Below are positions 15,260 to 18,569 of a DNA stretch of 64,000 bases, piece after piece. A program made the translations under genes and the position numbers. This DNA comes from Gammaproteobacteria bacterium. GTDB taxonomy: Bacteria; Pseudomonadota; Gammaproteobacteria; Natronospirales; REEB76. The stretch is taken from assembly GCA_035465695.1 (NCBI GenBank), contig DATIVR010000057.1, positions 803 through 64,802 on the forward strand, given 5' to 3'. Every line of letters begins with the position of its first letter. Positions within the stretch are counted from its first letter, which is position 1. The notes beneath the pieces were generated by a model, which had not been told where the DNA came from, searched no databases, and saw only the letters and a list, made by a program, of their open reading frames with translations.

Positions 15260-16797
15260 GCGCCATGCCCGGCAGGTTCCGCCGCATGGTGACGCTGGCG
15301 GCGGGCTGGCGTGACGGTTGGCGGGGCGAGCTGCTTGCCGCGGTGCTGGGCGTGCTGCTGGTGCTGGCCTTCGCACCTTTCGGTGTGTATCCCCTGGCGG
15401 TGCTCTCCCTGGCTGGATTGCTCTGGTCCATCGAAGGACTGACGCCCCGGCGTGCCGCTTGGCGTGGTTTCGCCTTCGGTGCCGCCGAGTTCCTGGTGGG
15501 AGTGTGTTGGATCTACGTGAGCGTGCACGACATGGGCGGCGTATCGCCGGTGATGTCGGTGCTGATGCTCGTGTTCCTGGTGGCGGCGATGGCCGTGTAC
15601 TGTGCTGCCACCTGCGCGATCACCGCGGCCTGGGGTGGCAGCGGCTGGCGGCGTTCGGCCGTGTTCGCTGCCGCCTGGGTCTTGTTGGAGTGGCTGCGCG
15701 GTTGGTTGCTCACGGGTTTCCCCTGGCTGACCCTCGGCTACAGCCAAGTCGATTCAGCTCTCGGTGGTTACGCACCTTACCTCGGCGGTTTCGGCGTGAG
15801 CTTCGCCGCGGCGACGAGCGCGGGGTTGGTGTTGATCGCGTGTGAAGCGGGTGCGCCGCGGCGTGTCCTGGCTCCATTGGTATCGCTGGTGGCGTTCTGG
15901 TGCACCGGCTGGGGACTGGGTGCCGTGACCTGGACCCATGCGGCCGGACCGGCCTTGAGCGTAAGCCTGATCCAGGGCGATGTGCCTCAGGAACAGAAGT
16001 GGGAACCGGAGGCCTTCATCCCGACGCTCGATCTATATCGCAAGCTCACAGATGAGAGCTGGTCCAGCAAAGTCATCATCTGGCCCGAGGCCGCGGTACC
16101 CGCCTACCAGGATGAGGTGCAGATAAGCTACCTGGACCCACTGGAAGCGGACGCCCGCAAGCATGGCACCGATATCATGCTCGGCATCCCCACCTACGAT
16201 CCGGTGCGCGATGACTACTTCAACAGCGTGATCACGCTGGGGCACGACGACGGCACCTACAACAAGCGCCACTTGGTCCCGTTCGGCGAGAACTTCGAGT
16301 TCCTGCCGCAGTGGGTAAAGTCGATGCTCAGGGACATGGACCTGCCATACTCCAGCTTCAGCCGCGGTGCCGAGCGGCAGGAGTTGCTGCAGGTCGCCGG
16401 CTATCCGGTAGGCACATCCATCTGTTACGAAGATGCCTATGGCGCGGATATCCTGCGCGACCTGCCGCGCGCGGCGTTCTTGGTGAACGTCAGCAACGAT
16501 GGGTGGTTTGGTGATTCCATCGCACTGCCTCAGCATCTGGAGATCGCACGCATGCGAGCGCTGGAGGCTGGACGCTGGCTCTTGCGCGACACCAATACCG
16601 GCATCACCGCCATCGTGGATGACAAGGGCCGGGTGCGGGCCCGGGCGCCCACCGACAAGGAATACGCGTTGCGGGGCGAGATTCAACCCTTGGCCGGCGC
16701 TACGCCGGTGACGCGCTGGGGTAACGCACCCATCGTATGCCTGTCGTTACTGTTGTTGTTCGCAGCCGCTTGGTCCCGGCGCAGGATCCGGCCATGA
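15256..16797 (+). CDS. lnt: Apolipoprotein N-acyltransferase
   Basis: N-terminal polytopic membrane region plus a C-N hydrolase domain with the catalytic ICYEDAYG context and WPEAA. Confidence 0.92.
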   Translation: MSAMPGRFRRMVTLAAGWRDGWRGELLAAVLGVLLVLAFAPFGVYPLAVLSLAGLLWSIEGLTPRRAAWRGFAFGAAEFLVGVCWIYVSVHDMGGVSPVMSVLMLVFLVAAMAVYCAATCAITAAWGGSGWRRSAVFAAAWVLLEWLRGWLLTGFPWLTLGYSQVDSALGGYAPYLGGFGVSFAAATSAGLVLIACEAGAPRRVLAPLVSLVAFWCTGWGLGAVTWTHAAGPALSVSLIQGDVPQEQKWEPEAFIPTLDLYRKLTDESWSSKVIIWPEAAVPAYQDEVQISYLDPLEADARKHGTDIMLGIPTYDPVRDDYFNSVITLGHDDGTYNKRHLVPFGENFEFLPQWVKSMLRDMDLPYSSFSRGAERQELLQVAGYPVGTSICYEDAYGADILRDLPRAAFLVNVSNDGWFGDSIALPQHLEIARMRALEAGRWLLRDTNTGITAIVDDKGRVRARAPTDKEYALRGEIQPLAGATPVTRWGNAPIVCLSLLLLFAAAWSRRRIRP

Positions 16798-18569
16798 GAT
16801 CCGAGCTGATCACCCTGCGACGCGACATGGCGGACTGGATGAGCCGCCATCCCGGCGAATCGGTCCTTGACTACTGCATGCGCCTCGCCGTGACGGCGGT
16901 GGTATTGCTGTTTCCCGCCACCGGTCTGTTGCTGGACCGGGCCGACAGCTACAGCCTGTTGTTGTTGCTGATCACCGGAATGGCAGCCTGGACGCAGGGG
17001 CGCTTCCACACCGGCTTCGGCCGTCAGGAATGGCTGTATGCCTCCGTATTCCTTCTCTTCTTCAGCGTGGGCGTATTGGCTTTCGCCTGCGGCCACGAGA
17101 CCGATTATGGTTTCCGCCTGCTGGGCCGCTATCTTCGACTGTTGCTGGTTTTGCCCGCATTGATGGCCTTACGACGCTATCGGCCACCCGCGCTGTTGGT
17201 ATGGGCAGGATTGGGGTTGGGCGCGCTGGCATTGGGCGTTGACGCTGTACTGGAGCGCGCGCTGGCTTCAGATATCGACCAGCCCATGGGCGACACCAAC
17301 GTAGCGATCCTGTTCGGAGACATGGCGTTGCTCACGGCCTTCGGTTTCGCCGCGGGTTACGTCTATGTGGATGGACGTCTTCCGCGTCTGGGTCCCAAGC
17401 TGTTGTGGCTCGGAATATTGGCGGGCATGACCGCGTGTTTCCTCTCTGGCGCGCGCGGCGCGTGGCTCGCCATCCCGGTGCTCTTGGTCCTGTTCCTGAC
17501 CTGCAGCCATCTGGTGCGGCCGCGTTCAGTGCTGCTCGGGGGCATCGTTATCGTCATGTTGTTCACCGCTCTGTACACCGTACCTGAGACTAAGGTGCGG
17601 GTCCGTTTGGACAATGCGGTAGAACAGCTGCGCACCTATGTGTACGTAAAGCAAAGCCTTGAGAATGCCCCGGCCCCCATATGCCTGGATGACCCGATAC
17701 TGTTAAAAGCCTGGGTCGCTGAGGGCGTTCGCAGCTCGGACCCCGAATTCCATATCAACGTTGTTTCCGCCCCCGTTAAGTGGAGACAGCAGCTTCTGAA
17801 AAATGGCTGCGTCCATGCCACGATGCTGCGACTTACGAACGTGCAGAGTCACGATCCTAACTGGATCTATTTGCCTCGAGCGATTCGCGGTAAGCACGGC
17901 GCGGCCGTGGCGAATCTTCTCGTTTCGGGGGCGGGATGGATGCATTTGGGTGTCGGCCCGCGCTCGGAGCGCCGAATATTTCCGCCTCTCATGCAAAGTG
18001 TCGAACTTCATACCTATTGGAAACGGAGCGGTCGGCTCGCAGTCGTGGTGGCGCCACAATCTGCAATCTATATGGTGCCCTTGGAGCTTTACACGGGCGA
18101 GTATCGTTATGCCCTGCTACAGACTTCCGTGGGCCAGCGTCTGGAAATGTGGCACGTGGCCTGGCGGTTGTTCCTGAAAGCTCCGGTCGTAGGTGTGGGT
18201 ACCGGCGGTTACATGTCGTCGGCGCAGAAGCTGGTGGACGAAGGTACCGCACCGCCCATCACCTCCATCTACGACCATCCCCACAACGAGTTCCTGGACG
18301 CGCTTTCCAGCCGCGGTCTCGTGGGTCTGGCGGCCTTGCTGCTGCTGTTCGGGGTGCCGGCCTGGTTGTTCGCCCGCGGCCTCGGCAGTCGCGATCCGGC
18401 GCGCATGGGTGCTTCGCTGGGCGGACTCCTTGTCTGTGTGGGATTCCCGGTGTTCGGCCTGAGCGAGACCATGCTGGTGCATTCAGTGACGCTCGGCTGG
18501 TATGTCATCATGACCGCCATATTCATGGCCACGGCGGAGAGTAACGAGGTGGAGGGACGAGGTGAGTGA
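16794..18569 (+). CDS. Wzy_C-family membrane protein (O-antigen ligase / possible O-oligosaccharyltransferase) with enlarged periplasmic domain
   Basis: Polytopic. Wzy_C hallmarks: [12 protein letters not shown]...[25 protein letters not shown]...[19 protein letters not shown]. The preferred start, ATG 16794, forms an ATGA overlap with the lnt stop. The ORF track begins at 16737. Confidence 0.8.

Follow-up and report, generated by a model that had tools for sequence, protein, structure and literature searches.

Here we describe gene X, which lies between lnt and leuS in a 64,000-nt stretch of the gammaproteobacterial contig DATIVR010000057.1 (hereafter the window), and which probably encodes a WaaL-type O-antigen ligase with a glycan-binding module. 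What is new in this protein is a periplasmic insertion that resembles carbohydrate-binding modules (CBMs), is restricted to one clade, and has not been described before; its core function is very probably ordinary. Our description draws on homology, predicted fold and conserved residues, on how old the insert is and how narrowly it is distributed, on synteny, and on a dip in the G+C content of third codon positions (GC3) that coincides with the inserted domain.

The membrane core of protein X

When protein X was compared with Pfam, Wzy_C was the only family found, at 56 bits against a cut-off of 31.7, and the match was divided over two stretches, the better of which covers aa 440-516. Excising aa 283-437 in silico yielded one full-length Wzy_C match instead, covering profile positions 3-149 of 149 at 80.5 bits. 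The motifs that the initial annotation had taken as the Wzy_C core (SGARGAWL, RLEMW, GVGTGGY and HPHNEFLD) are all present.

A profile made from 27 homologues matched a single solved protein among the PDB sequences, namely WaaL of Cupriavidus metallidurans (CmWaaL; 7TPG/7TPJ), with an E-value of 1.3e-26. Protein X aligns with CmWaaL (7TPG) in two pieces: aa 25-283 correspond to chain positions 5-255, and aa 436-585 to positions 253-406. Its AlphaFold (AF2) model has a predicted local distance difference test score (pLDDT) of 88.7 and a predicted template modelling score (pTM) of 0.86, and a Foldseek search of this model against the PDB returned 7tpg_B as the sole significant match (E 3e-10, target-normalised template modelling (TM) score 0.78). 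The model thus predicts that protein X has the membrane fold of the solved WaaL, with 12 transmembrane helices of the glycosyltransferase C (GT-C) type.

Four residues of protein X do not vary among the 27 homologues: R221, R449, H495 and H497. Their counterparts in the alignment with CmWaaL are R191, R265, H311 and H313, which reportedly include its catalytic residues. Conserved periplasmic Arg and His have been reported to be essential in WaaL (PMC6286764).

None of the curated NCBIfam models for ligases and O-glycosylating enzymes was matched above threshold. The RfaL equivalog NF012031 scored 13.9 bits with the native protein and 26.7 bits with the insert excised, against a cut-off of 277; this model is enterobacterial, so that its failure is to be expected for a distant WaaL. 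For TfpM (NF058641) the scores were 19.9-23.7 bits against a cut-off of 600, and for TIGR03097 (PEP_O_lig_1, an exosortase-associated putative O-glycosylation ligase) 21.8-33.6 bits against 188.1.

The inserted periplasmic domain

The two-piece alignment with WaaL leaves out about 150 residues at a single loop point, and these are therefore a clean insertion into the periplasmic loop, right before the RLEMW helix. A soluble insertion of ~170 aa with two Cys, preceding the R-x3-W / GxGxG block, had been noticed from the sequence at the outset, and our analysis bears this out at a length of ~150-177 aa. Within the soluble segment of aa 266-442 there are exactly two Cys, C297 and C339; as two invariant Cys in a periplasmic segment, they probably form a disulfide.

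The insert is not a peculiarity of this one protein. Some 95 homologues of 570-605 aa match protein X at 43-72% identity over 95-100% of its length, more distant homologues (30-33% identity) have the same length, and the insert occupies the same place in all of the ~95 full-length homologues over the range of 30-72% identity. It is present in each of the 27 aligned homologues, in which C297, C339, N349, G379, P429, G435 and E436 are invariant in the insert region, and Y437, R438 and Y439 nearly so. Mean pairwise identity in this alignment is 27% in the insert versus 57-58% in the two membrane parts. Judging from these comparisons, the insert arose long ago, is specific to this family and evolves fast.

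A profile of the domain alone was searched against 1.84 billion representative proteins and found 49 clusters. Of these, 47 comprise proteins of ~250-600 aa, most of them of 550-605 aa with the domain at ~270-440, while shorter members are apparently fragments; each of the eight clusters that were scanned proved to consist of split Wzy_C proteins. The other two clusters are giant surface proteins with repeats, and their matches to the domain are marginal. As such, the domain is essentially confined to the split Wzy_C architecture.

Modelled on its own, the insert is predicted with high confidence to fold into a beta-sandwich with two short helices (pLDDT 93.8). Foldseek, which the initial annotation had suggested for this domain, characterises it as a jelly-roll that is weakly CBM-like: the matches comprise CBM61, CBM4-2, CBM16, domain III of Cry1Ac, Eph ligand-binding and MAM domains, and phage tail-fibre and tailspike modules, at E-values of ~1e-3, TM scores of 0.42-0.6 (mostly 0.4-0.5) and ~10% identity. 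The best of them are the carbohydrate-binding and phage tail-fibre modules. By fold only, the model would place the insert in the jelly-roll 'galactose-binding-like' class. Sequence searches did not connect it to any described family: Pfam gave no match, and hence no described CBM sequence family, in any of 23 member sequences, NCBIfam gave none with aa 266-442 of protein X, and searching the PDB sequences with the insert-domain profile returned only noise.

In two of the homologues, P0039 and P0056, the beta-domains are closest to one another, but the membrane cores are not. This pattern suggests that lineages have occasionally exchanged the domain.

A dip in GC3 at the inserted domain

The initial annotation also contained hand counts of G+C in three parts of gene X, 56%, 62% and 72%, and recomputation reproduces them, at 0.565 (17641-18120), 0.617 (17161-17220) and 0.717 (18301-18360). 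Over positions 17589-18119 the G+C content is 0.563, compared with a mean of 0.645 (standard deviation 0.023) for windows of 531 nt; 0.1% of such windows are as low, and the dip is the lowest point in the 64 kb. It resides in synonymous sites. GC3 of the insert is 0.627, versus 0.770 and 0.785 in the flanking parts of gene X and ~0.74-0.88 in the remaining genes of the window, and lies below that of all 1,263 sampled windows of 177 codons (44 genes). From the amino-acid content and the codon usage of the window a GC3 of 0.822 is expected, which makes the observed value a deviation of z = -7.06; the null windows have a mean z of 0.25, a standard deviation of 1.41 and a minimum of -4.63.

The dip recurs among orthologues. 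GC3 is lower in the insert in 28 of 32 orthologous loci (a count that includes a few duplicate assemblies), by 0.08 on average, and the averaged profile of 28 distinct orthologues falls by 0.04-0.09 across codons ~261-440. It is largest in lineages of intermediate GC3 and disappears where GC3 exceeds ~0.85. The closest relative, L086, is without a dip, at 0.875, 0.853 and 0.853 for the successive parts of the gene.

Does the dip then mark a recently acquired, foreign segment of low G+C, brought into this genome by horizontal transfer as a captured domain or a replaced allele? The initial annotation had called the domain apparently acquired, and a GC3 of 0.63 where 0.82 is expected, the lowest in the window, agrees with that, as do the lack of a dip in L086 and the hint from P0039 and P0056 that the domain can be swapped. 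We nevertheless give this explanation hardly any credence. The domain sits at the same position in the ~95 homologues, can be aligned in all of them and has invariant residues, and the same protein, P0002, is nearest to both the domain and the core encoded in the window, the similarity between its domain and that of the window even lying above the family trend (residual +0.106). These congruent nearest neighbours rule out a foreign replacement of the domain in this genome. Moreover, the dip is present in most of the orthologous loci, and the averaged profile dips exactly at the domain. Because orthologues share the dip, and the closest relative is without it, it is no footprint of recent transfer.

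What, then, lowers GC3 in this part of the gene? Amino-acid composition is ruled out by the difference between expected and observed GC3. Translational accuracy, by which preferred codons would occupy conserved sites, is ruled out as well, as GC3 stays level over the conservation classes, at 0.75-0.78 outside the insert and at 0.52-0.67 within it. No promoter, terminator or Rfam/RNA element was found above background in the stretch of low G+C. Among candidate causes, selection or biased gene conversion in favour of GC may act less strongly on a segment that diverges this much; translation may be under selection to proceed slowly where a large, probably disulfide-bonded periplasmic domain is made between transmembrane helices; or close relatives may have exchanged this part repeatedly, of which P0039 and P0056 could be an instance. 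Gene X also contains a second, shorter low in GC3 (0.62) at ~17094-17213, codons ~101-140 of the N-terminal membrane part, and this part as a whole is below its expected GC3 (z = -3.35).

Relatives of gene X and the surrounding polysaccharide genes

The nearest relatives without the insert share 28-41% identity and the family motifs with protein X, and are located in lipopolysaccharide (LPS) core clusters. Where protein X has its insert, they have ~10 residues that link the periplasmic helix to the RLxMW helix. In locus L042, glnE is followed by a Wzy_C-GT2 fusion, a GT9 gene and a WaaP-like gene, and this GT9, the direct neighbour of the insert-less ligase, is 59% identical to the GT9 of the window. 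In L047 (Spiribacter) the order is LpxL, epimerase, Wzy_C, GT9 and GT1. The fusion in L042 (5947-8064) has counterparts in P0099-P0101, insert-less relatives (~700 aa) that are likewise joined to a C-terminal GT2 domain, and these represent ligase-glycosyltransferase fusions.

Three insert-bearing loci lie outside the slot between lnt and leuS, all of them in 'Natronospirales' metagenome-assembled genomes (MAGs). One of these MAGs, looked at in detail, carries two insert-bearing paralogues ~20 kb apart on one contig (JAKAXB010000004.1; L027 and L032). The neighbourhoods of both consist of polysaccharide synthesis genes and end at miaB. One comprises WbpM-like, X, AsnB-like and further genes, followed by Wzt with a Wzt_C domain and a methyltransferase; the other comprises GT1, Ugd, epimerase, Bac_transf, X and miaB. 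Because its relatives and paralogues sit in such clusters, the X family is associated with O-polysaccharide and LPS genes, not with targets of protein glycosylation.

In the window itself, gene X is located inside neither of two glycan clusters. The initial annotation had placed the gene away from the O-antigen cluster, which does not hold, as 5.2 kb upstream of it lies the end of a polysaccharide cluster of the O-antigen type, whose tail is contained in the window. This cluster encodes a GT2+GT1 protein of 995 aa, GSCFA+GT2, an epimerase, a WecA/WbpL-type GT4, a WbpM-like Polysacc_synt_2 dehydratase, PGM/PMM and ManC, and the same polysaccharide genes precede miaB in L001, L003, L004 and L086. 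A second assembly of the same organism (L087) extends ~2 kb beyond the left end of the window, with a sulfotransferase further upstream (795-1748). The GT2+GT1 protein is longer there, 1095 aa, so that the open reading frame (ORF) at 12-2999 of the window is 5'-truncated. A partial ORF of 241 aa upstream of the cluster in this second assembly is not Wzt-like.

The LPS core cluster lies 35 kb from gene X and contains no ligase (53.9-60.8 kb). It does contain a FecR-like protein of 446 aa (55694-57034). Gene X is the sole ligase candidate in the 64-kb window. A further ORF of 292 aa at 44402-45280 has a coding-like GC3 of 0.86 and is without a Pfam match.

Start codon and packing of gene X between lnt and leuS

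The ATG of gene X (16794-16796) overlaps the TGA stop codon of lnt (16795-16797), giving the sequence ATGA, as had been read initially. There is a further in-frame ATG upstream, at 16737; since the N-termini of the homologues (M-x-[QE]-E-L) line up with the ATG at 16794 in the 27-protein alignment, the latter is the supported start. On the other side, the leuS ATG at 18571 is situated 1 nt past the stop codon of gene X, and an alternative GTG at 18562 would give an 8-nt overlap.

The initial annotation had read the coupling to lnt as a hint about function. The coupling is real and conserved, yet it is symmetrical: among 25 distinct orthologous loci, 16 have a 4-nt overlap of the start of gene X with the end of lnt, and 14 have one of the same length between the end of gene X and the start of leuS. 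Because this packing is equally tight, the coupling does not single out Lnt. The backbone miaB-phoH-ybeY-corC-lnt-X-leuS-lptE keeps its order in all 25 loci, which come from soil and other metagenomes and have LeuS proteins 69-91% identical to that of the window. Insert-bearing homologues of another lineage, moreover, occur in an O-polysaccharide cluster without lnt. Gene X is thus packed into a conserved housekeeping operon, and its coupling implies no functional tie to Lnt. The genes from miaB to lnt, and leuS-lptE-holA-nadD, are a common gammaproteobacterial arrangement, known from the maps of E. coli and Pseudomonas. The junction of lnt and leuS is a variable slot that holds lineage-specific genes.

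A second variable slot of this backbone lies between lptE and holA. In the window it holds an OEP-HlyD-AcrB efflux operon of the resistance-nodulation-division (RND) type (22078-27943); in L001 and L086 it holds two hypothetical genes and ZnuA/ABC-3, and in L003 it is empty. The distant orthologous locus L004 has toxin-antitoxin pairs (PhdYeFM/PIN and MazE/PIN; 2415-3076 and 4881-5527) within the miaB-phoH-ybeY-corC block. The X locus is also found on contigs labelled 'Bacillota bacterium MAG97' and 'Candidatus Saccharimonadales SMAG_U8860' (L008, L030, L031, L034 and L035). The copy in L008 is complete, with lnt and lptE; the other four are different fragments that hold X, two of them also with the start of leuS. 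All five probably represent a mis-binned gammaproteobacterial locus. The coordinates of the features in the window are listed in Table 1.

Table 1. Gene X, its parts and residues, and its neighbours in the window (nucleotide positions).
Feature	Position	Strand	Description and basis
Gene X	16794..18569	+	591-aa WaaL-like (Wzy_C, predicted GT-C fold) inner-membrane glycan ligase with inserted periplasmic domain; ORF, Pfam, 7TPG match, AF2 model
ATGA	16794..16797	+	X start codon overlapping lnt stop codon; read in sequence
N-terminal membrane core, aa 1-283	16794..17642	+	Invariant SGxRGAW motif; periplasmic helix aa 268-291
R221 (SGxRGAW motif)	17454-17456	+	Invariant in family alignment
Inserted periplasmic domain, aa 284-435	17643..18098	+	Predicted beta-sandwich (jelly-roll, CBM-like); not in CmWaaL or L042 relative; holds GC3 dip
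C297	17682-17684	+	Invariant
C339	17808-17810	+	Invariant
C-terminal catalytic periplasmic loop and last transmembrane helices, aa 436-591	18099..18566	+	GEYRY, RLEMW, GVGTGG, DHPHNE
R449 in RLEMW	18138-18140	+	
H495/H497 in DHPHNE	18276-18284	+	
lnt (apolipoprotein N-acyltransferase)	15256..16797	+	Upstream neighbour; Pfam LNT_N + CN_hydrolase
leuS	18571..21165	+	Downstream neighbour; Pfam tRNA-synt_1 + editing domain
lptE (LPS-assembly lipoprotein)	21162..21752	+	After leuS, two genes from X; Pfam LptE; kept in orthologous loci
Tail of O-antigen-type polysaccharide cluster	12..11546	+	Pfam
LPS core / lipid A cluster	53893..60772	.	GT9 heptosyltransferase, WaaP-type kinase, LpxL-like, HldE, WaaA; Pfam

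Discussion

In the reading that we favour, protein X would act as the O-antigen ligase, of the WaaL type and with a GT-C fold, of an uncultured, mostly soil, gammaproteobacterial clade. Its donor glycan would probably be the product of the cluster just upstream, its acceptor would presumably be lipid A-core, and catalysis may rely on the Arg (R221 and R449) and His (H497) that are conserved in the family. Because a related cluster uses Wzt, and the cluster of the window has large multidomain glycosyltransferases, the donor may be a full-length polymer that is exported by an ATP-binding cassette (ABC) transporter. The insert could serve to capture or select a glycan, in the manner of a carbohydrate-binding module; the donor polymer seems a likelier ligand than the core acceptor. 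Expression of gene X would be constitutive, by way of its co-translation with lnt and leuS.

Several points weigh against a ligase of this kind and must be taken into account. The strong conservation of the membrane core and the housekeeping position of the gene are both unusual for WaaL. WaaL is reported to recognise the core specifically but not to discriminate with respect to the O-antigen (PMC6286764), so that a module that binds the donor would be atypical. In fold, the insert matches other structures weakly and in a generic way, and as the top matches include the non-lectin jelly-rolls Eph and MAM, glycan binding by this modelled domain is a guess. It had been stated initially that motifs do not separate WaaL from protein O-oligosaccharyltransferases (O-OTases), and the NCBIfam equivalogs likewise fail to divide them: no curated family does so, and the best scores for PEP_O_lig_1 (33.6 bits), RfaL (26.7 bits) and TfpM (23.7 bits) are alike. 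The question of another WaaL, raised in the initial annotation, was addressed within the 64-kb window, where the hidden Markov model (HMM) of the family core detected no second ligase-like ORF.

With Wzy_C also present in polymerases, gene X could instead encode a Wzy-type polymerase, or a capsule or exopolysaccharide ligase that acts not on lipid A-core but on another acceptor, e.g. phospholipid or peptidoglycan. Its adjacency to a polysaccharide cluster would suit this, and two paralogues in one cluster could mean two roles. We regard it as unlikely, as the full-length match is a WaaL, the relatives adjoin heptosyltransferase and WaaP-type genes, and the core cluster of the window is without another ligase; in addition, the Wzt transporter in L032 and the large multidomain glycosyltransferases of the window point to a Wzy-free pathway.

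The initial annotation had raised the possibility of another acceptor, such as proteins or lipoproteins, and nothing in our results points there, the context favouring O-polysaccharide and LPS. A protein O-OTase like PglL, PilO or TfpM would transfer glycans from undecaprenyl pyrophosphate (Und-PP) to periplasmic proteins, possibly to lipoproteins matured by Lnt, with the jelly-roll recognising the protein acceptor. WaaL and O-OTases have Wzy_C in common, the weak NCBIfam matches include TfpM and the putative O-glycosylation ligase, 16 of 25 loci have gene X overlapping the end of lnt, O-OTases of the PglS type possess extra periplasmic domains (PMC12800693), and an operon link between lnt and glycosylation exists in Corynebacterium (PMC3460810). 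The Corynebacterium system, however, belongs to a different enzyme family, and the coupling to leuS is as tight as that to lnt, at a junction that is a variable slot of a conserved backbone. The insert-bearing paralogues of the 'Natronospirales' are found in an O-polysaccharide cluster without lnt, the nearest insert-less relatives in LPS core clusters, and the only solved relative, matched over its full length, is a WaaL. Neither a pilin nor a glycosylation-target gene is adjacent to gene X. Protein glycosylation is, in our judgement, very unlikely. Its narrower form, in which a protein or lipoprotein O-glycosyltransferase co-expressed with Lnt would use the jelly-roll to dock on newly triacylated lipoproteins (e.g. 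LptE) and decorate them with the polysaccharide of the upstream cluster, has a slimmer chance still; if true, Gram-negative bacteria would have their own version of the link between lnt and glycosylation that exists in actinobacteria.

If gene X indeed encodes a WaaL-type ligase with a glycan-binding module, it would be a natural ligase with a built-in glycan-recognition element, shared clade-wide, in a family whose members are as a rule described as core-specific and indifferent to the glycan. This would bear on how GT-C ligases select donor and acceptor, and on the engineering of ligases and oligosaccharyltransferases for glycoconjugates. The X family also defines an undescribed periplasmic domain, without a Pfam model and with ~49 clusters among 1.84 billion representatives, and the recurrent, domain-bounded drop in GC3 makes a small case of regional heterogeneity in codon usage within one vertically inherited gene. 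Given uncultured organisms and a core function that is very probably ordinary, we consider the significance moderate.

Comparison with known systems

Among known systems, CmWaaL (7TPG/7TPJ), and WaaL/RfaL in general, come closest to protein X, sharing Wzy_C, a core predicted to be of the 12-helix GT-C type, the Arg/Arg/His set and the periplasmic catalytic loop, and like them the relatives of protein X belong to LPS core clusters. It differs from CmWaaL by the jelly-roll of ~150 aa, predicted to be inserted at the equivalent of CmWaaL residues ~253-255, and from WaaL/RfaL by its location between lnt and leuS, outside the core and O-antigen clusters, and by a core that is unusually conserved across the clade. 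The insert-less WaaL-GT2 fusions (L042 and P0099-P0101) are 34-41% identical to protein X and have the motifs LLFP, GF[RK]x, RLxMW and DHPHNE in common with it, but carry a C-terminal GT2 domain in place of an insert, and are located in a core cluster. PglL, PilO (TfpO), PglS and TfpM share the catalytic Wzy_C region, and some of them have an extra periplasmic domain, as in PglS at residues 438-548 (PMC12800693). In these O-OTases, however, the extra domain is C-terminal, in contrast to the inserted one of protein X, which moreover lacks a context of pilin or target genes. The insert itself resembles CBM61, CBM4 and CBM16, as well as the jelly-rolls of phage tail fibres, in its predicted beta-sandwich fold and similar size. 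At ~10% identity and TM scores of 0.42-0.6 it stands apart from these modules, being embedded in a membrane enzyme and holding a conserved pair of Cys.

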